DNA of 64,000 nt from Tepidiformaceae bacterium (GCA_965116915.1 OZ220739.1:630864-694863); one strand, 5' to 3'. Positions 30,240-50,439 are shown, counted from the stretch's first letter. Program-made: numbers and translations. Notes: generated from the letters alone by a model not told the origin.

Positions 30240-30818
30240 ATGTCGACCAACACTATGGTGCTCGAGCCTGGCCACGTCTACCGCACACGTGACCTCTCGC
30301 AATGGACCGCCAACCCCTCGCGGTTGGCCCGCCGGCTCGTGGATCGAGGGCAATTCAAGCCGCTCGCGCAGGGGCTGTTCGTTCACCCCAGGCAGAGCCG
30401 TTTTGGTGCCGTGCCCCCGGCTGATGAAGAAGTCATGCGTGCCTTCCTCGGTGGCCCGTTCGTTCTCACGGGACCGGAGCGTTGGAATGCGCTTGGTCTT
30501 GGCACCTCGGCGGCATTTGCCACTCAATTGGTCTACAACACCAAGCGTTCCGGGGAGTTCACTTTCGGGGGCCGTCGCTTCCTGCTACGGAGGGTGGCGT
30601 TCCCGGAACACCCCTCGCCGGAGTGGTTCGTCGTCGACCTGCTCCAACACGCGGAGCAGGCGGCCGCCGATCGTGACGATCTGACGACAGCTCTCGCCAG
30701 CGCGGTGAGGGATGGCCGGTTCGACACCGAGCGACTGCGCTCCATGGCGAGGGAATACGGATCCCTCGACACGCAGGCGCGAGTGGCGTCGGTTCTCGGC
30801 GCCTCGCAAGCGGCGTAG
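30240..30818 (+). CDS. AbiEi-like antitoxin (partner of the following AbiEii)
   Basis: 192-aa ORF ending 6 bp before the AbiEii-type gene. Its 3' third is duplicated as a pseudogene at 22109-22320. The family call rests mainly on position. Confidence 0.6.
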   Translation: MSTNTMVLEPGHVYRTRDLSQWTANPSRLARRLVDRGQFKPLAQGLFVHPRQSRFGAVPPADEEVMRAFLGGPFVLTGPERWNALGLGTSAAFATQLVYNTKRSGEFTFGGRRFLLRRVAFPEHPSPEWFVVDLLQHAEQAAADRDDLTTALASAVRDGRFDTERLRSMAREYGSLDTQARVASVLGASQAA

Positions 30819-30824
30819 CGGTCA

Positions 30825-31601
30825 ATGCCCTTCGTCCACGAAGATCGCGACTTCAACGAGCTGCTCAGCATCGTCGCCGAACGGCAGGGTCTTGCCATCG
30901 CGGCCGTTGAGAAGGACTACTGGGTCACGCACGTTCTCTGGGCCACCCTCGCTCAAGGATTCGACGTCTGGTTCACGGGCGGCACGTCGCTCTCCAAGGG
31001 CTTCGGTCTCATCAATCGCTTCTCTGAAGACCTCGATCTGAAGATAGAGCCTGGCAGCGCCACGGCCCTGCCAGGGGTGAGCGATTGGACGCGCGAGAGC
31101 CGCCGGGCGACTCAGCAGCGCCAGGCCTACTTCGAGGCCCTGTCGACGCTCCTGCGCGTGCCGGGTGCGGAGACTCACCTGACCGTTCCCGATACCGAGA
31201 GGCATTGGAGGGGGGCCAACCTGGAAGTGCACTATCAGGGGAGGCACCTCGAAGCTCTCGGTGTCCTAAGACCGTTCGTGTTGCTGGAGGTGGGGAGCGC
31301 GCGCGTTACGCCTTCCCTCGAGCGCGATTGCACCTCCTTCATCCACGACTATCTGGATGAAGAAGGCGAACTAGACAACTACGAGGACAATCGGCCCTGC
31401 TCCGTCCGCTGCCTTCACCCACTCGTGACCCTCATCGAGAAGCTAGACAGCTTGCACCGCCGAGCGCGACAGGCCGGCCGCGCCCCGGCTACCTTCGTCC
31501 GCCACTACGAAGACGCAGCCCATATCATCGCGGCGACGGCGGAACTACCGGCGCTTGAAGGCTACAGCGATGTGTCACCAAGCATCTCAAGCGGTGGGTA
31601 G
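30825..31601 (+). CDS. AbiEii/AbiGii-family nucleotidyltransferase toxin
   Basis: AVEKDYWVTHVLWATL...WFTGGTSLSKGFGLINRFSEDLDLKIEPG matches the DUF1814/AbiEii N-terminal and NTase motifs. Confidence 0.8.
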   Translation: MPFVHEDRDFNELLSIVAERQGLAIAAVEKDYWVTHVLWATLAQGFDVWFTGGTSLSKGFGLINRFSEDLDLKIEPGSATALPGVSDWTRESRRATQQRQAYFEALSTLLRVPGAETHLTVPDTERHWRGANLEVHYQGRHLEALGVLRPFVLLEVGSARVTPSLERDCTSFIHDYLDEEGELDNYEDNRPCSVRCLHPLVTLIEKLDSLHRRARQAGRAPATFVRHYEDAAHIIAATAELPALEGYSDVSPSISSGG

Positions 31602-35500: not shown

Positions 35501-36374
35501 CCTTCCGAATACGGGCGGCAATGGCCGCATTGGCAATCCCCTTCGGGTTGTCCGGCTGAATTCTGTGAGCGTGCTCAAGGTGGCCGGCGGCGGTGAGGGT
35601 ATCCTCGGCTGCCAGCAAGGCAGCTCCGAGATTTGTGAAGATGCGGAATCGGAGCTCCTTCGGTAGCTCGTCCGCCTGCTCCGTCAGTTGCTCAAGGTCC
35701 TCGCGAGCTGTGTCTGCGAGACCTCGGTTGATGAGGTCTCTTGCGAAGTCGATCTTCTTGACGATCTCGTTGTGCCGGGGGTCGGCGAAGCTCCCCGGCT
35801 CTGTCGGCTCAGCTAACAGGCCAGCCGTCTCAATTGAAGACTGCAACCGTGCAAACTTGTCCTCTAGCTCTGTCCCGAGAGAGTCGAACTGAGAGGCAAT
35901 TTCGCTCTTGGCGTCGGCGTGAAGTGTCTCGAGGCGGTTCGCCAGTGCAGGAAGCGCCTCATCGCCCCGGAAGAGAAGGGCCAGCATCTCCGCAAAGATC
36001 GCCACCACAAGCTGCGCGGCAACTTGTGCCTCTTCCCGTTCAGGACCCTGATAGAAGCCGCCTTCTTCAACGAATGAGCGGATGACCTCATCTTGCTCAA
36101 TGTCACGCTCGCCGGCATGCAGGCGCTCAAACAACCGCCTGAAGCCGTCACTCTGCGTCCACTGCTCGAGGGCCACCTCGGCTCCCTCGGCTTCAGGGAA
36201 TCGCCCGGCTATCGTCCTGATGGAGCGAGCTATCCCCTCTTCTTCTTTGGTGAGGAACGCGCGAAGGCCGTCGGTCGCAAAGTTGGCAGCGATGGCGGTG
36301 CCGAGTTGAGCCAACAGGGGTATCACTTCGGGCTGAACCAAATTGGGCTCCATATAGTGATCGTCCCTTAGCAT
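32538..36374 (-). CDS. Large TPR-repeat protein with a PIN-like C-terminal domain (1278 aa)
   Basis: Helical N-terminal ~200 aa, then many TPR-like Ala/Leu-rich repeats. The C-terminal region (about 32950-33450) carries PIN-type acidic positions: GIILDPLAL, VPQLVIEEI, KLVLVSDDLGLASVARHLGVEVV. An alternative start is ATG 36353. Confidence 0.7.
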   Translation of the reverse strand: MLRDDHYMEPNLVQPEVIPLLAQLGTAIAANFATDGLRAFLTKEEEGIARSIRTIAGRFPEAEGAEVALEQWTQSDGFRRLFERLHAGERDIEQDEVIRSFVEEGGFYQGPEREEAQVAAQLVVAIFAEMLALLFRGDEALPALANRLETLHADAKSEIASQFDSLGTELEDKFARLQSSIETAGLLAEPTEPGSFADPRHNEIVKKIDFARDLINRGLADTAREDLEQLTEQADELPKELRFRIFTNLGAALLAAEDTLTAAGHLEHAHRIQPDNPKGIANAAIAARIRKDSERAIELAVQAREAVAENSQATAVLLDELWEAERTDDLETLISTEPWLWGDRNCGITLATIRLRQSRFPEAVALCRTLAAANPEDAGVHLTLGQCLLKQAQAGLQLTGTITEASFAQLRSAETALLRAAERLDSTQLRTQKHDALVALANTHSLLGLPTEAMAELNRVLSESPSHPDANFMKGLLLLDKGEPAEARLALESSLEDRGEDVLGPLAGACIDSGDPIAAVNLLKGSFSLAEPEWEDVYRAILLNRAEANSGGEDSVGPAIEAALADRPNNARLLTLAAAHSDLNGSQEEAERLLLEARKQGNERDRREVSTRLAALYQRNGRFAEAADLLAEVVNDAPSHPAAGELLICLVNSQRLRDALAWAREIRKAQPHLPRLVIEAEARILERAGDTLAAIERLKELCSHVDSTAVDQVSLAAAQFRGGMPELACETIREIPIPELCADPMSLLRLAQLQLLLGEGGALDTALLVYRCGPDAPEAHLGYLGLFLACEASGPDPEAVSAGCAVLLKDELKEHWYLLLEDEETPRTANELKPAHPLATRLMGARVGDSIVLRQDLEDLSYDVVAIQSKFTRAFQEIHEEFSTRFPDHKGLSRVTGGDEGLAKVLTTIEQRDQFASEAERMYREGRLPFASFCSLLGRSALEGWRACTESRSIPIRCSAGTDEEASTASESLLEADGIILDPLALLTAHRLGLAAVIQDRFSHVAVPQLVIEEIQEAYYNTVLGPAPSGYLGKDADGRYALTEMTNEEWEQQRDFVRSVLSFAESLERLPSYRLLDESDAENLVEMLSWAGAGAVYAGEPETSAKLVLVSDDLGLASVARHLGVEVVNTQAVLSELRRAGVITAQDYFAQIESLVLLNYRFVRVDAATILGRLEANGYVTTDGTRAMVETLEGPECSDESAVSVAAELMVELARRAPDKVGLILGSVIEVLQSGRQGRPVPRMLASAVEARLSRDPVTSSWLVPAVLLHIAVSEGHQ

Positions 36375-36445
36375 TTTACGCGTTCCCGCTCTGTTGAGGC
36401 TCTGCTGGGGTGAAACCCAGGGCAGAGAGGGAGTCCTCGCGAGGA

Positions 36446-36480
36446 GGGGGAGACCGTCGCTCGACAGGACGATCTCCCCC
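36446..36480. terminator. GC-rich hairpin (13-bp stem with 1 mismatch, 9-nt loop)
   Basis: GGGGGAGACCGTC gctcgacag GACGATCTCCCCC, read directly. It sits just after the stop of the helicase-tail remnant. There is no U-tract, so its function is uncertain. Confidence 0.35.
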
Positions 36481-36491
36481 TGGGCACCCAG

Positions 36492-36579
36492 TCAGTTACC
36501 TCCGGCAGCCGGCTGTGCCCCCCGTTCTCGTTCCAGCGCCCACTCGAAGAGCTGGACCGTCGGGGCTTCGCCGCGGCAG
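36492..36579 (-). pseudogene. Extreme 3' tail of the SNF2-like helicase (last ~29 codons only)
   Basis: The minus strand reads RCRGEAPTVQLFEWALERERGAQPAAGGN-stop. The intact helicase ends RRDEAPTLSLFEWALEREQEGALAA-stop, and the other copies end EAPTLSLFEWA.... Confidence 0.65.
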
Positions 36580-36659
36580 CGGCCATGAGTGGCAACCGCA
36601 GCTGGGAGCCCACGCGGGTACAGAAGCGTGGGGCTGGCCCTAGACCTCGCTGTCAATAC

Positions 36660-36788
36660 GGTTGGGACACCCCCTGGTGGAGAGTCATCAGGGCGGATGG
36701 GACGCTCGGCACTCCTCCTGAGTGGCACCAGCGCGAGCTGCTGAACCTTGAGGGGCATGACTTTCCAATGCGTCCGCACGAGCACTAG
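36660..36788 (+). pseudogene. C-terminal fragment of an ATL/MGMT-like gene (paralogue of 13332-13817)
   Basis: GWDTPWWRVIRADGTLGTPPEWHQRELLNLEG compares to GWHGPWWRVTGKGGEIKTPREWHQREILDAEA in the full gene. The N-terminal DNA-binding part is missing. Confidence 0.6.
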
Positions 36789-36921
36789 AGGCCGCTCTGA
36801 CCCCCCCTCGAGTGGTTGTGTTGCGTTCGCCGCCGGTACGAGGCGGTCGCGGATCGCTCAGGCCTGTATTTCCCGCCTCATCGGCTGGGCTTCCACGAGG
36901 AGCCGAATGGCTGCATCGTTA

Positions 36922-39900
36922 TCACCAAGCACGAAGGCGATCAGGCTCAAACACCAACTCGGGAACCACGACCTCCCATGTCTCAACGCGCAGCCCCTCT
37001 TGGTGTTCCAGAGCAGTCAGCGCTCGCTCCCAAGTGACTATTGCTAGCACCGTGGCGTCGACACAGCGCATTCCTTGTGGCGGTTCGAACCCCTGGGCAA
37101 GCTGCCCCACGACCGTTCCCCGGCTGTCCAGCAGCGTCCAGCGCCCCTCCTGAGGCCGTACTTCAAGCTGGTCGCCTGATACCAGAGCACCGATTGCTTT
37201 GTGGATCCTGTGGTTGGGCGATCGGTATCCCGCGAAGCTGATAAACACGTCACGCAGGCTCACCCGGACGTATCGCCGGGCGAGCTCCGAAACCCGTAGC
37301 GAGGTCGCCGACGCTCCTTCCCGCTGGAGCACCGCTGGCAGATCGCGAAGAGGCTCTTGGAGAGGTTGGGCGCTAGCGAGCCGCATCAGGCTCAAGGTGT
37401 GCCGCGCCCTGGTCATCGCGACGTAGTAGAGGCGGCGTGGGGCGTCGGGGTCTTCACCTTGGCCTACGCGGTGCCAGCCACCGTCGAGCACGATCGCATG
37501 GTCGAACTCCAATCCCTTTGCTCGGTGGGCGGTCAGGAGCAGCAGGCCGTATTGCCGGCGTCGTGCCTCCCTGCTCCACTCGGCAAGCCACTCGATTGCG
37601 TGGTCGCGGGGCGTTTCCACGCCCCCGGTCTCCAACTCGTACTCCTCAATGGCCTCTCGCAGGAACGTGTTCCACGGGGTGTCCGGCTGCCCTGCCAGCC
37701 GAGCCTCAATTTCCGCCGTAGCAACCACCCCGGAGCCCCGTTCTCGCAGCCAGTTGATCAGCGCCTGAGTCTCCCGCAGCCGCCAGACGGACGAGATCTC
37801 CTCATGCGCCAGTTGGGAGGGGATGCCCTCGAGTTCGCAGAGGGTGCGTACAGGGTCCAGGAAGCTCCACTCGCGGGCGATGACGGCGCAACGGGACCAG
37901 TCCCAGTCCGGGTCGAGCGACGCCAGCCGTTGCAGCTCCGTGACGGCGGATCGCGCCTGTGAGAGCGGGGTGTCGCCCGCCGTGAGTATCTGGACCCGCC
38001 CCTGGGTTACAGGGTCACGACGCTCCCAGGTGCCGCCGGCATCTGCGTCGCGCCGAGCACGATCGACGCCGAGCGGGTGCCCGGCCTTCATGCGCTCCCG
38101 CGCCGGTGCGATCACGGCGTTCGCCGCCTCGACGATGTGCTTCGTCGAGCGGTAGTTTCCCGTGAGGTAGGACAGTCGAGCGTCGTAGTCCGCTTCGAAG
38201 CGACGGATGAACTCCACTGAGGCGCCAGCGAATGCATAGATGTTCTGGTCGTCGTCCCCGACTGCCAGCAGGGTCAACTTGCTGTCGGCGTCGTTCAGGG
38301 TCTTGCCGGCGAGGGCGGAGATGAGCTCGTACTGGGCTGGTGCTAGATCCTGGTACTCGTCGATGAGCACCCAGCGGAACCCAGCAAGAAGACGGCCCCG
38401 GACATCGTCCGCTTCCTCCGGCGGCAGGCCGTCGCCCCGCAATAGTGCGATCGCCTGCCTAAGGACTTCGTCGAAGTCCTCCGTGTCCGGCTGACCGGCA
38501 CGTCCTGCGTAGCTCGCTCCCAGCAGCCGCATGGCGAGCGCGTGGCAAGTCATGACCGTCACACCACGGGCGTCTGCGCCCACAAGCTCGACGAGCCGGC
38601 GACGTATCTCGACCGCGGCGTGACGGTTGTAGGTCAGGGCGATGATGCTGCGCGGGTTCTCACGTCGGACACGGAGCAGGAAGGCGATGCGGTGGACAAT
38701 CACACGGGTCTTTCCGGACCCCGGTCCGGCCAACACCAGCACATTGGTTTGTTCTCGCTCGTCGGCCACGATGGCGCGCTGGTCGGGGTTCTTCAGGTCC
38801 GCGACGACGGCTTGCCACGACTCCGCCGTCGTTTGTCGGCCCAATTCAGCGTCCCGGTTGGGCAACCACCGGTGCAGGAAGTCGGCCTCTGGCAGGCTGA
38901 AGTAGTCCATTGCTAGTTGCAGCGCGCCCGTCATCGAGCGCAAGCCTTGCTCGGCGTACTCCGCCATCACATGGATCTGGCGGACCTGCTCGTCGTAGTG
39001 GATTCTGAGGGATGCGAAGTCGGTGGGGCTGAAACTGCGCCGGCGGTCACTGTCGATGCGGACTGTCATCGCGGGACGGAAGACGGTCAGACCTCGGTTC
39101 AGTTGAATCACCTGCTGCTCGTGCAGCCACAGGAGCGCCCGCTCCATCAACTTGTCCGGGGTGCGCGCCCTGGCCCGGATCAAGAGGTCTTCCTGCAGGG
39201 CTCCAACCAACTTTCCAAGCGTGGTCTCGGTGAGCAGGTCGACGCCCTGGACACCGGGGGGCAACGTGCCGAGCAGGTGGTCAAGCAGCCGAGCAGCTGC
39301 GGCGCGGCGAAGCTCCGCAGTGCGCTCAAGGTCACTCCACTTTCGTCGCAGCGTGACCTGGACGGTTTCGCGGTCGCGACGGCGCAGGCTGAGACTTCCC
39401 CCCACCCCCGCTTCGTCACGCCCATCGGCCGCGATACTGCGCATGTGCTCCCACAGCAGCTCCTGCAGCACACCTTCATGTCCTTCGGCCTTGAGGCGGG
39501 CTGTCGCGTGCCGCAGGTGGAGCGGTGATGTGTCTCCTGGATCCAGATCGGGAGCCGCCTCACGCAGGAGGCCAATCAACGCGACCTCACGTGTCATTGC
39601 CGCTTGCAGGCGGTTTCGGGACGAGTTGGCCACGCCCGCGTGGACGAATGCTGTGATCGCCGTGTCGTTGCTGGCGATACCGAGATCGGCGAGGTCGTGG
39701 AGCGCCGCCCGCACATCGGCGGGACTCAACCCGACGGCCGACATGAGCTCGTCCGTGGAGAGACCCTGGTCGGAGGGTGCCTCGAATAGGATCTCCACGA
39801 CTTTGAGCAGCTTCTCTTGGTATGCCGCTGTGATCTGCGAACGGGCCAGTCGGGTCCGCGCGTCTTCGACCGAACTCACGCGCAGGGATGAAGGAAACAC

Positions 39901-42045
39901 CCGAACCTGGTTCTCTTCCCGCGAGACCAGCATGGCGTCCTCGAGCCAAGCGACCGCGGTACGAACCCGCGTGTCGTCGGTCGCTGAGTCCCGCTCGAAC
40001 TCCTTCTCCTCGTCCTCAAGGAGAATCTCCCCAGGCGTGGCTACGACCTCACCGTCGAGTCTGTGCCTGCGGTCCAGGCTGCGGAGGGCTCGCAGGACCG
40101 CCTGAATCTCGTGTCGCTGCAGCCGCGAGCGCGCTGCCAGGCCGAACTGCCGCTCCACGTCCTTGGCCGTGTAGAGAAGGATGCAGCGGGCGGCCTTTTG
40201 GTCCCGTCCCGCCCGTCCCGCCTCCTGCAGGTAGTTCTCCAGCGACCCTGGAATGTCGGCGTGGATCACGACGCGAACATCGGGCTTGTCGATGCCCATG
40301 CCAAACGCGCTGGTGGCGGCGATGACCTTCAGTTCCCCGCCAATGAACCCCTCCTGGACACTTCGCTTGGTGTCGGGGAGGAGTCCAGCGTGAAAGTGGT
40401 CGGCGGACAGGCCCTTGTCACGCAGGAAGGCCGCCATCTGTTCAGTGCGCGCGCGGGTCGAGCAGTACACGATGGCGCCGCCCCCGGTGTCCTCCGTCAA
40501 CTCCGCTTCTAGCAGCTGGTGCACGCTGGCGAACTTCTGGTCGTCGCTGGTCTCGACCACGACGAACTCCAGATTCGTCCGTTGAGAGCCGGCGTCGAAC
40601 ACCTGCAGCTCGATGCCGAGGCTGTCCTGGAAGTACTTCACGATGTCGGTGGTCACGTCGGGCTTCGCGGTTGCCGTCAGACACCAGACAGGCGGAGGAG
40701 CGGCGTCCCCGGCCCGCTCGCGGATGAAGCGGCCGATGTACCGGTAGTCGGGGCGGAAGTCGTGTCCCCACTGCGAGAGGCAATGCGCCTCGTCCACCAC
40801 CCACGCGCCAACTTCGCGCTGTTCCAGCGCCCTGCGGACGGAGACACTTCGAAGCTGCTCAGGCGAGATCAGGAGGATGCCGGCGTCCCCGAGGCGAACG
40901 CGGTCAAGCGCGTCGCCTCGTTCGGGCATCGATAGCATCCCGTTGACGGTCACGCCTGCGCTGATTCCCCGCCTCTCCAGCCCTGCAACCTGATCCGCCA
41001 TGAGGGCCACCAGCGGTGAAATCACGACAGTGAGCGCACCCGTCTTCGCGTATCGCGACAACGCTGGCACCTGGTAGCACAGCGACTTCCCGGCACCGGT
41101 CGGCAGAATGGCGAGGAGGTTTCCTCCGGCCATGGCGGCCTCGACGACCTGCTTCTGGACGGGTTGCCCGTCATCGTCGGCAGGTTCGGCTCGAAAGTCG
41201 TCGAAGCCGAACCACCGCTTCAGCTCCTTGCGGGCGTCGTGCCTCTCCCGGCACCACTCGCATCCCGGCTCGATGCAGGCGCGGTCGCGGAGGCGCTCCA
41301 CGAGCCGGTCCGCTTCGGGGAACTGGTGGCGGACCCACGGGGGCATCACCGAGTTACCCTCCGCCACCGAGAGCCATGCGAGAGTGTAGGCCAGAGGCCA
41401 TGCATGCACTTGGGCATCGGCCAGTGCACCCCGCGAAGCCGGGGAGCACGCGCGCCCTTCGAGGCAGGCGAGTGTGGCGGCCCTTCCCTCTTCCTCGTTC
41501 GGACGGCTCGCACCGCGCACCCGCGAGAAGGCGAGATCGAAGCCCGCCATCCCCTCGTCAAGGGTGGTCAGCCAGTGCCAAGCGGTCAGCAACTGGGGAC
41601 TGGCGCGACGGAGCGCTTCGTACTGGTCGGCGAAGAGTTCAAGCGCCAGGAGGGAGTCTAGGTGAGGGTCGTTCAGGCGGCCGCGCTTGAGTCCGCCTTC
41701 CTGGTAGTGCTTGACCAGGTGGTGGTAGGGATTCGCGGGGTGAGCCAGCGGACTCAAACGGAGGGTGTCGATGACGGGCAGCCCGAGGAGGCGGAGGTCG
41801 GGATGCGCGGCGCGAAGGTGGGGAAGGTCGAACGCGATGATGTTGTGACCGAGCAGGGCGTCCACGCCGGCTCCGAGTTCATCAAGAGCGGAGAGCGCCT
41901 CGGGCAACGTCTGCGATGTCCCTGGGAGTGTTACCGGCGTATCGGCGTCAGTGCGCACTCCGCCCAGCGCGTAGATGCCTCCATCCCCCGGACTTACCTC
42001 GAGGTCCACGGAGAGGCAGCGGATGAGGAGGGGGGTGTAGTCCAT
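36922..42045 (-). CDS. Triple-fusion protein: DEDD (DnaQ-like) 3'-5' exonuclease + RecQ helicase + UvrD/Rep-type helicase (1707 aa)
   Basis: Exo motifs SVDLEV, GHNIIAFDLPHL, PHLDSLLALELF (about 41480-42045). RecQ: ILPTGAGKSLCYQVPAL, VVDEAHCLSQWGHDFRPDY, ATSAFGMGIDKPDVRVVIH, QEAGRAGRD (about 39900-41200). UvrD: VLAGPGSGKT, LIDEYQDL, VGDDDQNIYAF, GNYRST, HRAKGLEFD, YVAMTRAR (about 37400-38800). Confidence 0.9.
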   Translation of the reverse strand: MDYTPLLIRCLSVDLEVSPGDGGIYALGGVRTDADTPVTLPGTSQTLPEALSALDELGAGVDALLGHNIIAFDLPHLRAAHPDLRLLGLPVIDTLRLSPLAHPANPYHHLVKHYQEGGLKRGRLNDPHLDSLLALELFADQYEALRRASPQLLTAWHWLTTLDEGMAGFDLAFSRVRGASRPNEEEGRAATLACLEGRACSPASRGALADAQVHAWPLAYTLAWLSVAEGNSVMPPWVRHQFPEADRLVERLRDRACIEPGCEWCRERHDARKELKRWFGFDDFRAEPADDDGQPVQKQVVEAAMAGGNLLAILPTGAGKSLCYQVPALSRYAKTGALTVVISPLVALMADQVAGLERRGISAGVTVNGMLSMPERGDALDRVRLGDAGILLISPEQLRSVSVRRALEQREVGAWVVDEAHCLSQWGHDFRPDYRYIGRFIRERAGDAAPPPVWCLTATAKPDVTTDIVKYFQDSLGIELQVFDAGSQRTNLEFVVVETSDDQKFASVHQLLEAELTEDTGGGAIVYCSTRARTEQMAAFLRDKGLSADHFHAGLLPDTKRSVQEGFIGGELKVIAATSAFGMGIDKPDVRVVIHADIPGSLENYLQEAGRAGRDQKAARCILLYTAKDVERQFGLAARSRLQRHEIQAVLRALRSLDRRHRLDGEVVATPGEILLEDEEKEFERDSATDDTRVRTAVAWLEDAMLVSREENQVRVFPSSLRVSSVEDARTRLARSQITAAYQEKLLKVVEILFEAPSDQGLSTDELMSAVGLSPADVRAALHDLADLGIASNDTAITAFVHAGVANSSRNRLQAAMTREVALIGLLREAAPDLDPGDTSPLHLRHATARLKAEGHEGVLQELLWEHMRSIAADGRDEAGVGGSLSLRRRDRETVQVTLRRKWSDLERTAELRRAAAARLLDHLLGTLPPGVQGVDLLTETTLGKLVGALQEDLLIRARARTPDKLMERALLWLHEQQVIQLNRGLTVFRPAMTVRIDSDRRRSFSPTDFASLRIHYDEQVRQIHVMAEYAEQGLRSMTGALQLAMDYFSLPEADFLHRWLPNRDAELGRQTTAESWQAVVADLKNPDQRAIVADEREQTNVLVLAGPGSGKTRVIVHRIAFLLRVRRENPRSIIALTYNRHAAVEIRRRLVELVGADARGVTVMTCHALAMRLLGASYAGRAGQPDTEDFDEVLRQAIALLRGDGLPPEEADDVRGRLLAGFRWVLIDEYQDLAPAQYELISALAGKTLNDADSKLTLLAVGDDDQNIYAFAGASVEFIRRFEADYDARLSYLTGNYRSTKHIVEAANAVIAPARERMKAGHPLGVDRARRDADAGGTWERRDPVTQGRVQILTAGDTPLSQARSAVTELQRLASLDPDWDWSRCAVIAREWSFLDPVRTLCELEGIPSQLAHEEISSVWRLRETQALINWLRERGSGVVATAEIEARLAGQPDTPWNTFLREAIEEYELETGGVETPRDHAIEWLAEWSREARRRQYGLLLLTAHRAKGLEFDHAIVLDGGWHRVGQGEDPDAPRRLYYVAMTRARHTLSLMRLASAQPLQEPLRDLPAVLQREGASATSLRVSELARRYVRVSLRDVFISFAGYRSPNHRIHKAIGALVSGDQLEVRPQEGRWTLLDSRGTVVGQLAQGFEPPQGMRCVDATVLAIVTWERALTALEHQEGLRVETWEVVVPELVFEPDRLRAW

Positions 42046-42293
42046 GAGCGATGATGAAATTCAAGGGGGTGTACGCCCACTTCGGGATGGTACTTCAGAA
42101 GGTAGGCTTCAAAGAGGGGGCGATTATGGCACGTGCGAGCGGGTTGGGCGGCTGTGTTCCGCGAGACTGCGCGACGCCCATTCCTGCCAATGCTGCCTGC
42201 CTGTACGGAGGAGCACCCATGGGCATGGAACGCCAGAAGGTGGTAGGCGGCGGGTAGGGGGAAGAGTGAGACGGCTCACCACAGCTTGATGGT

Positions 42294-43070
42294 TTAGTCA
42301 GACCGCGGGGCGGCTGTTGCAGCGACAGCCGCTTTGTGGGCGGCCTCGATTCTAGTGAGCGCCGAGCTCACTAGCGCCAGCACTGCCTCCGTCTCTTCCG
42401 GGTTTGGCGGTACGTCGTTGTGGGCAACGGGATTGCGGCTCAACGCGTAGAGGCCCTTGAAGAGATGCAGGTAACCTTCGCGCTCATGCGCATCCAGGAA
42501 CTGTGTGGTGACGGATCCTCCGCCGAAGAGTCGGCCTGCGAGGCTGTCGCCGTCTGTACCGGCCGGGAGGTTGAACATCTCTACCATGCGAGTCTTGAAG
42601 ATGGCCCACGCCTCCCTAACTGCGGCGTTCAGTTGACCGTTGGAGACATGAGGCTCCAGGCGGGAGTTGAGAGCTTGGTCGGAGGGCGAGTTTACGTTGT
42701 ACCACTCCTCAAACATGCCCAGAGCCTTGGGCATGTCGATGCTCACGATGTCGACTGGGTCATGTGCACAGCTCCCGGGAGCGCTCACCTGAAGGTAGTG
42801 GTTGATGAACCACAGGTGTCGCTCCAAGTGTGTGTGCTGTTCCACTTGGCTCTTGACCTCAGGGGGCAGCGCTGACTTGAACTCGTCGACGGCTCCCCGC
42901 AGCAGAATCGTCTGGTTGGTGAGGCCCGGCAAGTGGGCAGCAAAGACGCTACGAGCATCTGCGGCGACTTGCTGGTCACCGACACACTTAGACAGCGCCA
43001 CCGCGAGCCTGGTGGCCTCAGCCGACGCAGCCATTGCGAGGCTATAAACATGAGCCCGGTAAGTGAGCAT
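42294..43070 (-). CDS. TIGR02391/Hypoth_Ymh-like protein
   Basis: The C-terminal half (AVREAWAIFKTRMVEM...YLHLFKGLYALSRNPVAHNDVPPNPEETEAVLALVSSALTRIE) matches the conserved ...RNP.AH... core of that family. Same strand as the giant helicase, 249 bp upstream of it. Confidence 0.6.
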   Translation of the reverse strand: MLTYRAHVYSLAMAASAEATRLAVALSKCVGDQQVAADARSVFAAHLPGLTNQTILLRGAVDEFKSALPPEVKSQVEQHTHLERHLWFINHYLQVSAPGSCAHDPVDIVSIDMPKALGMFEEWYNVNSPSDQALNSRLEPHVSNGQLNAAVREAWAIFKTRMVEMFNLPAGTDGDSLAGRLFGGGSVTTQFLDAHEREGYLHLFKGLYALSRNPVAHNDVPPNPEETEAVLALVSSALTRIEAAHKAAVAATAAPRSD

Positions 43071-43460
43071 GGGCGATCGATTTTCTCACCCTGAACCCAT
43101 TCCGTCTCGCGTTTCCGACCGTGCACCATAACGTCGAGTCGGCCAGTACTCCCCCAACTCGAGAGGCACAGCGCCGCGCAGCACACCGGATGCGGGAGTG
43201 GACCGAGTGCTGATGAGGGGCCTGCCGCGCGGAGTCCGGGTGGCGGGAGGCCGCTACCCGAGGGCTGGTGTGGCCGCCCCTGGCCCACGGGCACCTAGTG
43301 GGACGAAGAGCATGCCCTGGCTGCGGCCTTGCCCAAAGATGCGTGTGGAGCGCGTCAACCGTCTGAGTAGATGGCTAGCACGACAGCAATGCGGGGCAGA
43401 ATGCAGGACAAGCTGCCTTCCCGGTACACTGCGGCTACAGTCAGAGCCTCCACAAACTGA

Positions 43461-43655
43461 GTGCATATGGCAACGTCACCGGAACTGGGTGAGAGTGAAC
43501 TCGAGAAAGTTCGGGATCTCTTAGATCGCGCGACTGGGGAGGAGCCCGGCGCCCCCGAGTCCCCGCCAGCTGACCGCACATTGACCCTCTTGTCGAAGCG
43601 GGACGACTTGCGGACCCTGGTCGGGCGGATGATAGCCGATGCGCTTCTCGATTGA
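43461..43655 (+). CDS. Small hypothetical ORF (62-64 aa) leading the SMC-SIR2 operon
   Basis: GTG 43461 or ATG 43467. Its 3' end overlaps the ATPase ATG (43639) by 17 nt. Short and acidic, so its coding status is uncertain. Confidence 0.35.
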   Translation: MHMATSPELGESELEKVRDLLDRATGEEPGAPESPPADRTLTLLSKRDDLRTLVGRMIADALLD

Positions 43656-45990
43656 CGCGGAGACTAGTGGCGGCCTGAGGGTCATTCCCACCATCCCGAA
43701 TATAGATAGATGTTGGCTGGAGGGCAGGAACGGCATCGGCAAGACCGTTGCCGTGCGACTCCTCGAACTTGTCGCCGGAAGGCAGCCTTTTCGGAGCGAC
43801 GGAGATGCTTGGGCTGCGCTGAAGGAGAATCTCGGCCCGACGACCGTCGTCATTAGTGAATTCCCTTCCACAGCCGAGATAGAGTCCATCCGTATTGAAC
43901 TCACACCCGACGAGTGGCCAGCTGACCCTGTCCCCCTGACGGCCGATCTGGGCCCAGTCTTCATAGATGGGAAGCAGCGCGACCACCACGCTCTACGCGA
44001 GTACTTTGACCTAGTGCGGATCGGAGGTGACGAAACTGTTGTCTCACAGCTAAGCAATCTAATTGGCGACGACTATGCCCTTGCGGCGCGCTCCAGAAGG
44101 TCGCTGGAGGACCTAGCTAGAGACGCAGGGTCAGTCCTAAACCCACTGATCATTGACATTGACCGGCTCTCCGAACCCGAGTTTGTGGCTGCTGACGAGG
44201 CTGTCCGAATCACCACAGAGGAGCTGGCCAGCGTTGACACCAAAGTCGAGAAGGCCTCAGAGCGGCAACTCGATCTTGAAGAGTTGATCAGGTTATCTGA
44301 TCTGCGGCAGCAGCAGGTGCGGCTTGGACCGGAGATTCGAGCATCACTCGATGCGGCCAAGTCGAGAGTGCGGGAGCTTACCGAAGCGAAGGAAGCGCTG
44401 ATGGAGCAGCTTCGGGCGTTAGTGCCAAGGCGCGCCGCCTTGCAGCAGCTCCAGCGCGATCTGGAGGAGCTGCAGAGGCGGCGGGACGGGCGCCGTAATC
44501 GGGCCGCGCGCTCCCACTCGACCGCTCAACAAGCCATGCAGGAAGCCGGTGTCGCAATCGACACCGTGGACTCGGTGTACCAACAGGCGCTCGATAAGCG
44601 AACCGAACTGCGCGGCGATCGCGCTGCCTTAGCCTCCCTTCCGGACGTACTTAAGCTGATCAACGATGCGCGATCACCCCTCGCTGATGTCGAGGGGTCA
44701 AGCCTTGACGACGAGGTTCTTGCAGTTATCGACAGCAGCGCACGGATGACAACCTCGGACCTGCGCGCCGGGCTCGATGCGCGAAGTGACGAATTGAAGC
44801 GAGATGTCTCATACGATCAGCTGGCGAAGATCGATGAGGATATCGCCAGGTCAACATCCCACATCAAACAGCTTTCGAATGTTCGCTCACTGATCCTAGA
44901 CGCGGACCGAAAAGCAACCCTCCTGCTTGAAGTCGAACGTGAGATCGAAGCAAAGGACGACCAGATTCGAGACTCGTCAGGAGACGAGTATTCCGAGGTG
45001 TCCGAGCGGCTCCATGTGGTGGAGTCGCAGATTGCCGAGGAGATCAAGCGTGAGGCTGAATTCCGAGTACATCTTGACTTGCTCAATCGAAGTGGAGGCG
45101 CATCTGCCTTGGACAGCAAGGTGGCGGACCTGGAGCAACGCCTGGACATCGCGGCCTCCGGGGCCAAGGATGCTCTTGGCGTTACCGTAGCGCTTCGTCA
45201 AGACCTAGCCGCTGAACAGCAACGTCTCCGCTACGAGCTCTCGTCCAAGAAGACACTACACCGTGACTTAGAGGACCAGCTCGTCCGGGCCCTTCAACTC
45301 ATCGCGCGGGGCGCCGACTACCAATGGCTCAGGGAGAGTGTGCCAGCTGGCACCATCCCACCAGTCAAGGCAGACCGCAGGGACGCGCTTCGACGGCTGG
45401 TGCGCCTGGCGGACGCGGCCCGACGCGTGCAGTCGGACGTTGACGCTTCGCTCAATCAAGTCGCCGCTGTCGAGGCGGCTCTAGACGCAATCAAACACTC
45501 GATAGCCACACACGCCGACCCAAGCCGGAATCGCTATGCCGAGAGCCTAATTGAGTGGTACCAGGGACAGATGGCGGACTACCTCTCCAACGAAGACATC
45601 CGTGAGGCCATATTCGATGGAGGCGAATTCCAGCAATTCGACCTCGTGAATGGGTTCGTGTCCTGGCGCACGAAGACGGGTGAGCAGAGGCGACGACCGA
45701 TCGAAGCGTTCTCGAGTGGGGAGCGAGCGTTTGCATACATGCTGGCTGCGATCCTGAGCCATGGTAGGTCCACGGCGCAGTACCGCGTATTCGTCCTCGA
45801 TGAGTTCGGTGCGTTCGTTGAGCAGAGCAGGAGAAGCCGTCTCTGGCACTTCCTCGACCAGCGGCTCCTGAAGGAAGGTCTGGCAGCTCAAGTCGTCGTG
45901 ATTTTGCCTTCGCAGGCGAGTCTGCCTGGAGCCTTCGACGGTGAACTGTTCGAGGCCGAAGACTACATTGCCAGGGACGCCGGGCCGTGA
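43639..45990 (+). CDS. SMC/Rad50-like ABC ATPase with a long coiled-coil insertion (783 aa)
   Basis: Walker A EGRNGIGKT at the N-terminus, ~450 aa of heptad-rich coiled coil, then signature-like FSSGERAF and Walker B YRVFVLDEFG at the C-terminus. The stop overlaps the next GTG (GTGA at 45987-45990). Confidence 0.8.
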   Translation: MRFSIDAETSGGLRVIPTIPNIDRCWLEGRNGIGKTVAVRLLELVAGRQPFRSDGDAWAALKENLGPTTVVISEFPSTAEIESIRIELTPDEWPADPVPLTADLGPVFIDGKQRDHHALREYFDLVRIGGDETVVSQLSNLIGDDYALAARSRRSLEDLARDAGSVLNPLIIDIDRLSEPEFVAADEAVRITTEELASVDTKVEKASERQLDLEELIRLSDLRQQQVRLGPEIRASLDAAKSRVRELTEAKEALMEQLRALVPRRAALQQLQRDLEELQRRRDGRRNRAARSHSTAQQAMQEAGVAIDTVDSVYQQALDKRTELRGDRAALASLPDVLKLINDARSPLADVEGSSLDDEVLAVIDSSARMTTSDLRAGLDARSDELKRDVSYDQLAKIDEDIARSTSHIKQLSNVRSLILDADRKATLLLEVEREIEAKDDQIRDSSGDEYSEVSERLHVVESQIAEEIKREAEFRVHLDLLNRSGGASALDSKVADLEQRLDIAASGAKDALGVTVALRQDLAAEQQRLRYELSSKKTLHRDLEDQLVRALQLIARGADYQWLRESVPAGTIPPVKADRRDALRRLVRLADAARRVQSDVDASLNQVAAVEAALDAIKHSIATHADPSRNRYAESLIEWYQGQMADYLSNEDIREAIFDGGEFQQFDLVNGFVSWRTKTGEQRRRPIEAFSSGERAFAYMLAAILSHGRSTAQYRVFVLDEFGAFVEQSRRSRLWHFLDQRLLKEGLAAQVVVILPSQASLPGAFDGELFEAEDYIARDAGP

Positions 45991-46952
45991 GCGAGGTACG
46001 TGCTCCGTCGGACATCTTCGGCGTGCCGTTCGTCCTCCGGAGACAGGATGCTGAGCAACTCGTCGACAGTCTTGGCCAGCTTTGGATCACCCAAACGGGT
46101 GAGCCGATGACCGGTCTCGACGAGGATCTCAAGCTCCTGTTCTCCAAGCTCTTTAATCCCAAGACAACTGGCGCTCGGCTCCGCGATGTCCTGAATTCTT
46201 TGCCGCCAGCGCCGATGGTCCGTTCTCGCTTCCTGAATCCTCCGCTGATTATCGAAGCCGGCCCGTCCACACTCGTGACCCCTGAGGGTCGGGCCGTATA
46301 CGACCTGCTAGGTAACTTGCTGCAGGAGTCGGACGAGGATCCGATCGGCCTCGATCCAATCGATGCATTTGCCTTGGTGAGCCTGACTCACCAACGTTAC
46401 CGGGAAGTAGGAGTGAAGCGGCTCGAGGACGCGGTCGGGCTCCTGGGGGGACGGGCGGAGGGGCTTCGGCTACCATCGATTGCACTCCTGCTGTTCCTTC
46501 TGGTGAACGGATCAACGTCTACAGCAACGGCCATCCGCAGACCGAGCGACAGTGATGAACTGAGCCGACTGGATGACGCCGTCGCGAAGGCCATTTCGGC
46601 ATTTGCCGACACTCTCAGTTCACGTGCGCGCGATCCGAGTCACTTCTCGCTTTACTCCGGATACGCGGTAACCGAAGCGCGGCGACGCCTCGGTCAGACT
46701 ATGGGTCCGACTCCCGACCAAATCTACGTGGATGACAGGCACCGGGACGCCGTGATTGAGCGCGTTGCCAGCGAGCTCCGGCGTAGTCAGCGCTCGCCTG
46801 AAACCCGGAACGTCATGGCTGCATTCGACAACCTCGTTTCAGCCTACCGAGAGGAGAGGCCGACCCTCGCATCGCTGGGTGTCACGCACGAGAGCCGTGT
46901 AGAAACAGCAAGACTCCGCGAGCAGTTGGAGCGCGCACTTGGAGACCCGTGA
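45987..46952 (+). CDS. Hypothetical protein (321 aa), middle gene of the SMC-SIR2 operon
   Basis: Translationally coupled on both sides (GTGA overlap upstream, 14-nt overlap downstream). No family recognised. Confidence 0.65.
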   Translation: MSEVRAPSDIFGVPFVLRRQDAEQLVDSLGQLWITQTGEPMTGLDEDLKLLFSKLFNPKTTGARLRDVLNSLPPAPMVRSRFLNPPLIIEAGPSTLVTPEGRAVYDLLGNLLQESDEDPIGLDPIDAFALVSLTHQRYREVGVKRLEDAVGLLGGRAEGLRLPSIALLLFLLVNGSTSTATAIRRPSDSDELSRLDDAVAKAISAFADTLSSRARDPSHFSLYSGYAVTEARRRLGQTMGPTPDQIYVDDRHRDAVIERVASELRRSQRSPETRNVMAAFDNLVSAYREERPTLASLGVTHESRVETARLREQLERALGDP

Positions 46953-48495
46953 TGTGCTGTGCCTGCTATCCGAGCTGCTAGGGGATCCGGAGGAGGACGA
47001 TCGCAACACATCCGTTGTGCCCGTTGTGATCGATGACTTCGCCGGACATGGCGATCTCGTGCGGGCCGCTGCGCACGCTGTCGGGGCTTCGCTAATCGTC
47101 GCCTCGGATGTCGTAGATGGGGTCCGTGGAAGACGCGATCACACGCTGAAGGCCCGCATCGAGGAGTACCTACGGGTTCCGCGTTCGGGGGGCGAAGACT
47201 CTCGAGTCTCCATCCTGGCGGACCAAGGCATCGTGCATGCGAGGATCGACGACCAGACCGAACTCGCGAGCAGATCCGAGAGAGAGGTTGCTGGGCTAGC
47301 TTCAGCTCTGTTCTCAGAAGAACTGCAGACGAGCAGCCTTGCGTTCATTGTCTACAACGAGACCGTACTGGACGACGAGTGGGCCGAAGCCATCTGGCGC
47401 CTCTTCGGCAGCATCGATGGGACGCGGTTCCGGGCGGTCAAGCGCTTCATCTTGCTCATTGAGCGATCTGGCGAGCACACGCCGGATCACCATCTTGACT
47501 CCGAGCCTACCGTCCAGTTCTTCGTTCGGTCGTCGGGACTGACGCGCCGGAAGCCGTGGCTCGTAGACCTTGCCGAAGTCCGCTACATAGCGGAGCAGGC
47601 TGCCAGCAATGGCCTCGTCCTGTTCCTCGGGGCCGGTTTCTCGAGTTCGTCGGGGCTTCCGCTCGGCAACACACTTCGCGACGATGCGCTGCGAGCATTC
47701 CTAGCTATGCCAGAGGCAGGGTTCGACGAGCTCGCTTCGGCGTTCTTCGAGTACCTCCGGGCCAACAGACGTCTGCTCGAGGTCGAGCATCAGATGCCAT
47801 CCGACGAGTTCAACAGCCAGCTCACGCTTGAGCGGGTCCTCCGCGAAGAGATCTGGAGGAGCGGTGCCGACGATAGTCCGACACTGCGTGGTTTCGAGAA
47901 CATGAACGACATTGCTTTGAAGAACAGAGGTCCCGCCGTCGCTGGCCTGCACAACGTCTTGAGGCTCATTCCCAGGACTGTCGTGATCACTGTGAACTTC
48001 GACACCCTCGTAGAGGCTGAGGACGGCGATGTGCACACGATGGTCACAGAGCAAGAGTTCAGGGACGGCCGGGACTACCTGGATACGTACCTCGGCGAAC
48101 CCGACAATCCCGTCCCCGTCTTGAAGCTCCATGGTTCAATTCGGTCGAGAGAGACGATCATTGCCACGGTCGACCAGACCGCTCAGGGTCTATCCACAGA
48201 GAAGGAAGACTGCATTCGTGCCGTCCTCGAGACCAACCGCAAGGTGCCATGGGTCTACGTCGGATACAGCATGCGCGACCCGGATCTTTGGGGCATTCTC
48301 GAATCCCGGCTCGTCGCTGATCGTGCCGACGAATACTGGGTTAGCCCATTCGAGGATCCGAACGCTTTCGAGTGGTCCGGGTTGCACCGGCAGTTTGGTC
48401 AAGATGGGCGGACGTTCTGGCAGAGATGCATCACGCTGACTGCCGATAGGTTCTTCGAGCAGCTCCTAGCTGCCTGGGCTGCACAGCACGACTAG
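46939..48495 (+). CDS. SIR2-family (SIR2_2-type) protein with a ~210-aa unknown N-terminal domain
   Basis: GLVLFLGAGFSSSSGLPLGNTL, VITVNFDTLVE and VLKLHGSIRS follow the defence-type SIR2 pattern (GAG.S...G.P ... N.D ... KLHGS). TTG start at 46939; alternatives lie nearby. Confidence 0.8.
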   Translation: METRDVLCLLSELLGDPEEDDRNTSVVPVVIDDFAGHGDLVRAAAHAVGASLIVASDVVDGVRGRRDHTLKARIEEYLRVPRSGGEDSRVSILADQGIVHARIDDQTELASRSEREVAGLASALFSEELQTSSLAFIVYNETVLDDEWAEAIWRLFGSIDGTRFRAVKRFILLIERSGEHTPDHHLDSEPTVQFFVRSSGLTRRKPWLVDLAEVRYIAEQAASNGLVLFLGAGFSSSSGLPLGNTLRDDALRAFLAMPEAGFDELASAFFEYLRANRRLLEVEHQMPSDEFNSQLTLERVLREEIWRSGADDSPTLRGFENMNDIALKNRGPAVAGLHNVLRLIPRTVVITVNFDTLVEAEDGDVHTMVTEQEFRDGRDYLDTYLGEPDNPVPVLKLHGSIRSRETIIATVDQTAQGLSTEKEDCIRAVLETNRKVPWVYVGYSMRDPDLWGILESRLVADRADEYWVSPFEDPNAFEWSGLHRQFGQDGRTFWQRCITLTADRFFEQLLAAWAAQHD

Positions 48496-49812: not shown

Positions 49813-50055
49813 CTGAGACCGGGGGGGATCTAGGTTCTCTTGCTAATCGATCGGCCTAGGCACGGCAGCAAGTGCCCGACGGAGGAGGCGTGCTGGCACC
49901 CATGCAGCTGTGTTGCCTCCTCGAGGGGCGCCCTGCCCTAGCCGGATCGATCAAGACCCTCGCGCGCGTTGTTACCCAGTCCAAGCCAGGTCGCGCATCC
50001 ACACGCGGCTGTTACCCTGAGATGCGTTCCCTACTACTAACCAAGGGGGTCGAAC

Positions 50056-50439
50056 ATGTCATCTCGCCGACCGACAAAGCAGGGCGGGGAAGAGAGAGGG
50101 CAAGAGGCCGACTACGACGCTTGGTTGGAGGAGGCCGATGCGCGCAGCGCTCAGCTTGAGAGCGTTGTCACGGTACTTCATGCCGAGTTGGACAAACTTG
50201 CCCGCAAGTCGCCGACCGGGCAGGTGAGCGATCTGATGGTTCAGCGAGTCAACAAGGCCATTCGCGAGTCACACGCCCTCATGGACCGGGAAGGCGACGA
50301 CTTTCTCCAAGAGGTGACTGAGTTCATCGCGGCCGGCGACAACCCTGAGAACCGAGACGTGCTTCTTGTCCTCGCGGAGCTGAAAGCTGCCTTGTCGCGT
50401 TTTCGTTCCGGGCACAGAGCCGACTGGCTTCGGCACTAA
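50056..50439 (+). CDS. Hypothetical helical protein (127 aa)
   Basis: ATG preceded by AAGGGGG. Ends 1 nt before the next gene start. No family recognised. Confidence 0.55.
   Translation: MSSRRPTKQGGEERGQEADYDAWLEEADARSAQLESVVTVLHAELDKLARKSPTGQVSDLMVQRVNKAIRESHALMDREGDDFLQEVTEFIAAGDNPENRDVLLVLAELKAALSRFRSGHRADWLRH

Follow-up and report, generated by a model that had tools for sequence, protein, structure and literature searches.

Why a bacterium should carry a nuclease and two DNA helicases of different families in a single polypeptide is the question raised by a gene of a Tepidiformaceae bacterium, found in a 64,000-nt stretch of DNA (GCA_965116915.1 OZ220739.1:630864-694863), the whole of which was analysed and is referred to here as the window. 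The product, a protein of 1707 amino acids (aa), joins an exonuclease domain to a RecQ-type and a UvrD-type motor. The gene is an uncharacterised helicase-nuclease gene of defence islands, stand-alone and horizontally mobile, and we infer that its most likely role, at a probability of roughly 0.45, is that of a single-gene barrier to foreign DNA such as phages and plasmids.

The open reading frame (ORF) has exactly the extent given in the initial annotation of the window, and the three-enzyme fusion claimed there is genuine: the frame is real and intact, and both motors are under purifying selection. The Walker A and DExx motifs of both motors and the four acidic residues of the exonuclease are invariant across 76 relatives, and all of the superfamily 2 (SF2) and superfamily 1 (SF1) helicase motifs, likewise said to be intact, could be located and are invariant or nearly so. 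The GC content at third codon positions (GC3) of the gene is 0.79, as against 0.85-0.93 in the flanking core genes of the window. The domain layout is given in Table 1.

The first motor was recognised both by Pfam (DEAD at residues 295-463, 108 bits; Helicase_C at residues 507-615, 71 bits) and by the NCBIfam RecQ subfamily model TIGR00614, on which it scored 309.1 bits against a cutoff of 219.8, thus placing it in the RecQ family. The bacterial RecQ equivalog TIGR01389 (PRK11057), in contrast, gave 342 bits against a cutoff of 640 and was aligned over model positions 3-349 of 591 only, so that equivalence to the housekeeping enzyme was not reached. Solved RecQ structures cover residues 281-630, with 4tmu from the PDB matched at E=5e-69, and the diagnostic motifs are LPTGAGKS (residues 314-321), DEAH (418-421), the aromatic loop WGHDFRPDY (426-434) and QEAGRAGRD (607-615). 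Pfam detected no zinc-binding (RecQ_Zn_bind), RQC or HRDC domain in the 1707-aa protein, and C621 is the sole cysteine between residues 616 and 1166, so that no four-cysteine zinc site follows the core. The RecQ motor, described at first as complete, is thus whole as regards the motor core but not as regards these accessory domains.

For the second motor the description as a complete UvrD/Rep motor holds, the N- and C-terminal Pfam domains and all of the motifs being present. UvrD-helicase (PF00580) was matched from residue 1086 with 148.8 bits (cutoff 23), AAA_19 was matched too, and UvrD_C/UvrD_C_2 lie at residues 1499-1553 (PF13361, 44.9 bits against a cutoff of 25.6), whilst structures matched in the PDB include UvrD1 (9dci, E=6e-37) and E. 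coli UvrD (E=7e-35). The motifs comprise AGPGSGKT (1106-1113), DEYQD (1229-1233), GDDDQNIY (1263-1270) and YVAMTRAR (1541-1548). Taken together, the domain scores and motifs Q and I-VI place this part within the UvrD/Rep/PcrA group of SF1A; however, the NCBIfam equivalog models for UvrD, PcrA and Rep all scored far below their cutoffs, and it is therefore regarded as an SF1A family member and not as an orthologue of any named enzyme.

The identity of the N-terminal domain comes from structure prediction and from conserved residues. For residues 1-290 of the window protein Pfam returned no family even at E<=1; RNase_T was weakly matched by five of 25 relatives (best E=0.0015), and a profile of 25 N-termini, when searched against the PDB, placed the Staphylococcus aureus DinG exonuclease at the top with E=0.057. 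An AlphaFold model of this region, built on 53 sequences (mean predicted local distance difference test score, pLDDT, 87.6; predicted template modelling score, pTM, 0.85), has at residues ~10-160 a core in which beta-sheet and helices are mixed, and beyond it is helical throughout. In a Foldseek search of the PDB with this model the top five matches, and nearly all of the 50 listed, were DnaQ-like 3'-5' exonucleases, including the TREX1 homologue Plex9.1 (9mrd), S. aureus DinG, Cas2-DnaQ, the exonuclease domains of PolB, Cap18 and TREX2. The four acidic residues of motifs ExoI-III (D14, E16, D73 and D130) are invariant in 25 close and four distant relatives and lie within the motifs D14-x-E16, G66-H67-N68...D73, D93-T94-L95 and N125-x-P-x-x-D130; G66-H67-N68, D93-T94-L95, H108, K112, N125 and P127 are also invariant, and remain so in Chromatiales, Cyanobacteria, Bacteroidota and Campylobacterota relatives that share only 24-46% identity. 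Alignment with DinG puts D130 on the ExoIII Asp and N125 at the position of the DEDDh catalytic His. Of the DEDD 3'-5' exonuclease first claimed, the DnaQ fold and the four invariant acidic residues stand, but the fifth residue is Asn instead of His or Tyr and no exonuclease model of Pfam is matched. The domain is accepted here, on the predicted structure and the invariant residues, as a DnaQ-fold exonuclease with four acidic ligands which is not of the canonical DEDDh or DEDDy type, and it is predicted to be active as a nuclease.

Amongst the most conserved stretches of this domain is the loop NPYHHLVKHY (residues 105-114; window positions 41704-41733, minus strand), in which H108 and K112 persist down to 24% identity; the model has a pLDDT below 50 at residues 108-123. 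Through its invariant H108, K112 and H113 the loop might replace the missing general base. It is possibly a mobile loop with a role in catalysis or in substrate gating. In the helical module which follows, four cysteines (C200, C257, C262 and C265, with the motif NSVMPPWVRHQFPEA) are invariant in the close family, are retained in the Allochromatium and Bacteroides variants and are gone in those of Calothrix and Aliarcobacter; a metal or Fe-S site at these cysteines is possible.

The C-terminus of ~170 aa to which no family had been assigned is present, although it is nearer to 150 aa in length, and a second, larger unannotated region, at residues 636-1080 between the two motors, had not been mentioned. 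This linker is strongly conserved, with a mean column identity of 60%, and gave no Pfam match at E<=0.01 and no PDB match by profile search. Weak, sub-threshold winged-helix matches occur at residues ~740-795 (DprA_WH in 8 of 25 members, RPA_C in 7 of 25), and the linker probably contains winged-helix domains. As for the C-terminal domain, the predicted structure has a mean pLDDT of 79.9, rising above 90 for model residues ~60-150, and the last ~95 of its 152 residues form a confident all-beta domain. Foldseek found no significant structural analogue of this beta domain in the PDB (best E=0.15; template modelling score, TM, <=0.31), the weak matches to Rad5 and HamB (TM<=0.31) being leads only, and the PDB profile search with the C-terminal domain was empty. 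A RecB-type PD-(D/E)xK nuclease at the C-terminus was considered and rejected, no conserved acidic, His, Lys or Arg catalytic candidate being present; the invariant residues of the domain are solely G, A, W, P and F. Distant variants can be aligned up to residue ~1545-1555 only, which makes the C-terminal domain the most variable part of the protein. The winged-helix-like linkers and the C-terminal beta domain are probably DNA- or ligand-binding parts, and the linker and the variable beta domain are candidates for regulatory or sensing parts.

A protein search gave more than 7800 matches, the best 120 of which are all full-length (1690-1760 aa, 65-91% identity); P0001 is 85% identical over 100% of the length, and thousands of relatives measure 1700-1730 aa. 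The few of the best 120 that have been named are called 'RecQ family ATP-dependent DNA helicase', an NCBI name which conceals most of the content of the protein, whatever its function. Relatives occur in at least 588 species out of 185,579 species representatives (one genome per species) and in more than 12 phyla, a very patchy distribution that amounts to about 0.3% or more of the representatives. The N-terminal module alone was found in 1147 cluster representatives of a 50%-identity library, in which the full-length carriers measure 1670-1890 aa with the module almost always N-terminal, the others being shorter and many of them apparent fragments. Eighty loci from these species were kept as the basis of the neighbour comparisons below ('L' numbers denote individual loci); they span the Chloroflexota, Acidobacteriota, Latescibacterota, Gemmatimonadota, Binatia, Thermodesulfobacteriota, Spirochaetota, Actinomycetota, Cyanobacteria, Poribacteria and the Alpha-, Beta- and Gammaproteobacteria.

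Sequence identity among these copies does not track taxonomy. Copies from Acidobacteriota (Vicinamibacterales) and Spirochaetia are 93.1% identical, those from Binatia and Thermodesulfobacteriota 85% and those from Poribacteria and Dehalococcoidia 77%; L009 vs L014, L015 vs L016 and L062 vs L001 are pairs of this kind, with the helicase at ~8001-13100. For 30 of 77 copies the nearest relative belongs to another class or phylum, and mean identity is 62.6% within groups as against 56.9% between them. Cross-phylum identity of up to 93% thus points to recent and frequent transfer. Core, syntenic homologues, the outcome which the initial annotation had named as counting against a defence role, are not what was found: the homologues are patchy, non-syntenic and transferred between phyla. 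Plasmids also carry the gene, a near full-length copy being present on 22 plasmid records, mostly large non-mobilizable replicons or chromids, and divergent versions of 25-43% identity on plasmids of Allochromatium, Nostoc, Calothrix, Bacteroides and Aliarcobacter. Among 50,697 phage records none has a full-length copy.

Many of the carrier metagenome-assembled genomes (MAGs) have names or labels like those of sponge symbionts (Poribacteria, Poriferisocius/Poriferisodalis, and the SB06xx, RHO3 and IRC4 bins), which hints that the gene is shared within the sponge-symbiont habitat. Near-identical copies in different phyla, together with abundance in symbiont-labelled MAGs, make it a marker of recent interphylum gene flow. 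The Chloroflexota MAG RHO3_bin_68 holds two full-length copies on separate contigs (L028 and L030). On the Nostoc punctiforme plasmid pNPUN02 (L097:4962-9980) the homologous locus is annotated with three consecutive ORFs on the same strand, one of 1021 aa labelled as a RecQ family helicase, one of 373 aa as a UvrD-domain protein and one of 256 aa as a '3'-5' exonuclease', the last of these labels likely being an annotation artefact for the C-terminal part of UvrD. This locus was not used as split-gene (Rosetta-stone) evidence, as it looks like a disrupted copy, probably frameshifted or decaying.

The first candidate for a partner is the gene immediately upstream. The initial annotation had noted a TIGR02391-like gene here on the same strand and had proposed to check its co-occurrence with the helicase. 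The gene is present, 248 nt upstream, and its 258-aa product passes the cutoff for Pfam Hypoth_Ymh (PF09509; 47.2 bits against 25) but not that for NCBIfam TIGR02391 (16.4 against 39.45); it also has the R-x4-6-H motif of HEPN type expected of this family, since R212, N213 and H217 of an RNxxxH motif are invariant in 25 Ymh homologues. The Ymh family has at least 103 cluster representatives. An exact look-up found no record identical to the 1707-aa window protein; the Ymh protein is recorded (P0121). The suggested partnership did not survive comparison: tblastn with the 258-aa protein found a Ymh homologue near the helicase at none of the 80 loci, and the Ymh gene is absent from all four of the closest helicase relatives (76-85% identity), whose neighbours differ. 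The 256-aa upstream gene in L081 is unrelated to the Ymh protein, and L091, a further sample of this lineage, is the only other place where the adjacency was seen. Genes of the TIGR02391 family are often close to restriction genes, and an 80%-identical Ymh homologue was found in a type I restriction-modification (R-M) cluster with no such helicase nearby (L093:5207-15139), in the order HsdM, HicA, HicB, Ymh, HsdS, ..., HsdR, with a SocA_Panacea gene close by. In that cluster, accessory HEPN and toxin-antitoxin genes are embedded within an R-M operon. Judged from these comparisons, the Ymh gene is independent of the helicase gene and is not its partner.

No other partner emerged. When 1177 flanking ORFs of at least 70 aa were clustered all-against-all, the largest family was present at 7 of the 80 loci, and a comparison of 1780 ORFs of at least 30 aa and of 300 nt of upstream DNA found conservation only between closely related genome pairs. 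Across 77-84 loci nothing beside the gene is conserved, be it a neighbour, a small ORF or the DNA upstream, and it is therefore regarded as a single-gene, stand-alone unit. A promoter and terminator scan of window positions 36300-43700 found no promoter-like site and one terminator-like site, which lies within coding region.

The surroundings of the gene, both in the window and elsewhere, are for the most part those of a defence island. The position between a TPR-PIN gene and an SMC-SIR2 operon, as first described, was borne out, and AbiEii, a methyltransferase, PDC-M36A and PDC-S01 can be added to it (Table 1). GC content is 0.56-0.67 around the helicase gene and 0.70 in the flanks, falling from ~0.70 to 0.56-0.66 at ~8-14 kb and 24-52 kb, which suggests that the window is a composite island; a search for island borders found no tRNA gene in the window. 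Amongst the relatives, genes of R-M, toxin-antitoxin, Abi, OLD or CRISPR type are present in most of the neighbourhoods for which annotation exists. Individual loci have a TCAD9-kinase/HATPase/AAA_21 set with a recombinase; MmeI with DACNG/DACNH and Panacea; a type III R-M system with HepT/MntA, HD and M78; an OLD nuclease with an MNT/HEPN pair; PDDEXK, PIN and AbiE; and, each at a separate locus, a type I-D CRISPR system, RES with BrnT, HipA, a type I R-M system with HNH, and PIN with a transposase. Two loci from related genomes (L089 and L101, helicase at 7001-12133) share the helicase and a left flank of GatB, DUF6807 and an MNT/HEPN pair, whereas to the right one has an OLD-family nuclease and the other an AAA_15/AAA_21 pair and a duplicated Ogt, both then continuing with NurA; different defence genes beside a common flank and helicase therefore indicate the behaviour of a hotspot. 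Of 120 immediate neighbours taken from 60 species, no more than four belong to any one family, and the 25 most frequent families in this tally include ResIII, RT/DRT, type IV restriction endonucleases, PLD, HNH, PDC-S01 and PDC-S36. The association with defence genes is strong circumstantial evidence for an immune role, although it falls short of proof.

Table 1. Positions in the window of the helicase-nuclease gene, its domains and the surrounding genes.
Feature	Position	Strand	Basis or content
Exonuclease-RecQ-UvrD fusion, whole gene, 1707 aa, stop included	36922-42045	-	ATG-started ORF, translation
DnaQ-fold (RNase H-like) 3'-5' exonuclease domain, residues ~8-160	41566-42024	-	Predicted structure, invariant residues, weak profile matches
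All-helical 4-Cys module, residues 161-290	41176-41565	-	Secondary structure of the model, invariant columns
RecQ-type SF2 core, residues 291-635, motifs 0-VI and RecQ aromatic loop	40141-41175	-	Pfam, NCBIfam, PDB match
Family-specific linker, 445 aa, residues 636-1080	38806-40140	-	Conservation; sub-threshold winged-helix matches
UvrD/Rep-type SF1A motor, residues 1081-1555, motifs Q, I, Ia, II, III, IV, V, VI and 2B-like insertion	37381-38805	-	Pfam, PDB match
C-terminal domain, residues 1556-1707, ending in conserved WEVVVPELVF	36925-37380	-	Structure model
Hypoth_Ymh gene, 258 aa	42294-43070	-	Pfam PF09509
Large serine recombinase	20546-21946		
AbiEi-like gene	22385-23293		
192-aa ORF and AbiEii pair	30240-31601		
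TPR-GreAB-C-PIN gene, 1278 aa	32538-36374	-	TPR repeats, GreA/GreB C-terminal-like and PIN-TPR-GreABC PIN domains
AAA_21 / 321-aa / SIR2 operon	43639-48495	+	Overlapping stop and start codons
Type II-like N6/N4 DNA methyltransferase; 127-aa ORF and 480-aa PDC-M36A (DUF8370)	48466-51883	- (methyltransferase); + (127-aa ORF, PDC-M36A)	
PDC-S01 candidate defence protein, then 1367-aa ORF	53234-58962	+	AAA_14/DUF4143, 530 bits; 19-nt overlap

Several of the other genes in the window merit mention in their own right. The 1278-aa protein encoded directly downstream of the helicase belongs to the predicted TPR-GreAB-C-PIN conflict systems and has no PADLOC match. The operon on the other side encodes a 783-aa AAA_21/SMC-like ATPase (weak AriA match), a 321-aa protein without a family and a 518-aa SIR2_2 protein (weak Aga_SIR2 match); it has no strong PADLOC match, is also present in L091 and may represent an undescribed ATPase-SIR2 system. 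No cognate nuclease of the N6/N4 methyltransferase was identified in the window, and the 1367-aa ORF which follows PDC-S01 has no Pfam or PADLOC match.

How such a protein could act against foreign DNA can be sketched from its parts. Enzymes of the RecQ and UvrD families travel along single-stranded DNA in the 3'-5' direction, and nucleases of the DnaQ type trim nucleotides from 3'-OH ends. On foreign DNA that is replicating or entering the cell, the two motors would engage a 3' single-stranded tail, a gap or a fork, where one of them would track along the template strand and the other would peel off the strand ending in a 3'-OH, be it the nascent leading, the invading or the entering strand. 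The freed 3' end would then be passed to the exonuclease, so that replication intermediates or DNA ends would be dismantled and the replication or establishment of the foreign DNA disabled. As two motors of the same polarity cannot carry out the bipolar scheme of RecBCD at a blunt end, action at a fork or gap, or by looping, appears more plausible. In its most specific form, which we put forward only tentatively, the gene would be an undescribed single-gene immune system that recognises the structure of invader DNA (3' ends, rolling-circle or fork intermediates) without a partner and employs its two motors, both from 3'-5' families, to strip off a 3'-ended strand and deliver it to an atypical DnaQ-type exonuclease with Asn instead of His or Tyr.

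A number of observations weigh against a role in defence, and the proposal should be considered with these in mind. The recurrent neighbours also include MetG, DctM and aminotransferases; one locus (L084) lies between metabolic (acyl-CoA) genes and a flank with HNH, SRAP and ImuB-DnaE2, and the neighbourhood of another (L099) is metabolic. Two distant copies lie in plasmid backbones, that of Aliarcobacter amid ParAB, Rep and a type IV secretion system (T4SS) coupling protein and that of Bacteroides near two SSB genes and ParA. As regards the protein itself, the fold matches of the exonuclease domain are marginal (E 2e-3 to 0.4, TM ~0.5), although the top five have a probability of 1.00, and the invariant N125 stands in place of a canonical His or Tyr general base. 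Classical bipolar resection of the RecBCD kind is poorly matched by two motors of like polarity, and the mechanism outlined above is hence speculative. Furthermore, no component that would discriminate self from non-self is evident.

Some of these observations would be accommodated if the protein were instead an accessory enzyme of DNA repair or recombination, a bacterial WRN-like helicase with a UvrD motor, acting on stalled forks, gaps or breaks of the host genome and spreading through benefit to its carriers. The N-terminal half is laid out as in WRN, with a DnaQ-type exonuclease ahead of a RecQ core; motors of both helicase families are classically those of repair, and NCBI attaches to the protein the Gene Ontology term 'DNA recombination'. 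Genes of repair also lie near a few of the relatives, Fpg as well as HNH genes, SRAP and ImuB-DnaE2 beside L084, and Ogt and NurA near L089 and L101, and synteny is kept between close relatives such as L006 and L008. However, a very patchy distribution with recent interphylum transfer is not what would be expected of such an enzyme, there is no conserved neighbourhood of repair genes, most contexts being R-M, toxin-antitoxin or Abi islands, and the RQC and HRDC domains of the housekeeping RecQ are missing. We therefore consider a repair role unlikely; were it correct, the protein would be a new accessory fork-processing machine.

Equally improbable, in our estimate, is that the gene serves the mobile elements which carry it, in the establishment or maintenance of plasmids or integrative and conjugative elements, in anti-defence or in competition, the chromosomal copies then being cargo of integrated elements. 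The 22 plasmid records and the two plasmid-backbone settings described above are in keeping with this, as are the recombinases or transposases nearby in the window (20546-21946) and in L081, L088, L090 and L100. Set against it, most copies are chromosomal and lack conserved element genes adjoining them, most of the carrier plasmids are large non-mobilizable replicons or chromids, and the phage records hold no full-length copy; moreover, defence systems often ride on mobile elements, so that this explanation overlaps with that of a barrier to foreign DNA. A two-gene system, in which the Ymh protein and the helicase-nuclease would act together, for example as sensor and abortive-infection effector, is very improbable in spite of the adjacency of the two genes on one strand in the window and in L091 and of the invariant RNxxxH motif of HEPN type, given the 248-nt gap, the absence of Ymh at 80 loci and in the four closest relatives, its 80%-identical homologue in an HsdM-HicAB-Ymh-HsdS-HsdR cluster without the helicase and the lack of a conserved partner of any size.

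A single-gene barrier to foreign DNA thus remains the preferred reading, and it is of interest how such a barrier compares with the systems already described. The initial annotation knew of no named defence system that this gene would fit, and our comparisons agree: PADLOC-DB v2 (2023) has no full-length model for the fusion, matching it at domain level only through DpdF, PsyrT and GajB, no NCBIfam equivalog was reached (the RecQ, UvrD, PcrA, Rep and DpdF models all fell below cutoff), and no description of an exonuclease-RecQ-UvrD fusion was found in the literature searched, the papers on polyvalent proteins and on RqlH not mentioning it.

In architecture the closest parallel to the N-terminal half is WRN, which likewise has a DnaQ-superfamily 3'-5' exonuclease followed by a RecQ core, and WRN chains match residues 294-645 with E ~1e-48. 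WRN, however, possesses RQC and HRDC domains but lacks a UvrD motor, whereas the fusion adds an SF1A motor and a novel beta domain; the exonuclease of WRN is of the DEDDy type, and that of the fusion has Asn as its fifth residue. The protein can thus be viewed as a bacterial counterpart of WRN with a second engine. The DinG proteins of Firmicutes (S. aureus, B. subtilis) are also fusions of a DEDD exonuclease to an SF2 helicase, that of S. aureus providing the second-best fold match to the N-terminal domain, but have a single, XPD-like motor and a canonical DEDDh site; Firmicute DinG is described as a chromosomal housekeeping or repair gene in PMC12525004.

With RecBCD, AddAB and AdnAB the fusion has in common the concept of two motors and a nuclease in one machine, and nothing beyond the concept, although its UvrD-like part matches the AddA and RecB models of NCBIfam at domain level. 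These are multi-subunit enzymes with RecB-type PD-(D/E)xK nucleases, the motors of RecBCD being of opposite polarity and AdnAB using two UvrD-like motors according to PMC3378886. The fusion, in contrast, is one polypeptide in which an SF2 and an SF1A motor, both from 3'-5' families, are combined with a DnaQ-type exonuclease, and its C-terminus has no PD-(D/E)xK signature.

The defence proteins which resemble parts of the fusion, namely GajB, HamB of Hachiman, DpdF and PsyrT, are helicases of defence islands, where the fusion also resides, but all work with partners (GajA, HamA, the dpd cluster and PsyrA, respectively), none of which is conserved beside it. The model for GajB of Gabija matches the UvrD part only, with at most 180 bits in PADLOC; there is no conserved neighbour, and in the window the genes on either side are Ymh and TPR-PIN in place of GajA, an OLD-family ATPase-nuclease. 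DpdF of the Dpd system matches residues 267-657 only, the RecQ core, with 396 bits in PADLOC, and the NCBIfam model NF041063 gives 211.5 bits against a cutoff of 550; here too no neighbour is conserved, though no scan specific to dpd neighbours was made. PsyrT of PsyrTA (RqlH/RqlI-type) matches residues 268-656 only, with 299 bits, and at ~690 aa is far shorter than the 1707 aa of the fusion, which has no conserved adjacent gene that could be the PsyrA antitoxin. Hna and Nhi each consist of a single polypeptide with nuclease and helicase and are stand-alone in defence, as is proposed for the fusion; they belong to other nuclease and helicase families and have one motor, and they are set apart from it by these descriptions and by the PADLOC scan, which gave no full-length match.

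Should the gene prove to be a stand-alone immune gene, it would be a widely distributed addition to the defence repertoire (at least 588 species and more than 1100 cluster representatives), and the first to unite a RecQ motor of SF2 and a UvrD motor of SF1 in one chain with an exonuclease of the proof-reading type. It would also provide a compact model for the cooperation of motors of the same polarity, for a DnaQ-type site without the usual general base and for the discrimination of foreign from self by a single protein. Were the recognition of invader DNA structure proposed above to be correct as well, the fusion would stand for a mechanistically new class of helicase-nuclease defence, separate from the RecBCD-like systems and from Gabija, Hachiman, Hna and Nhi.

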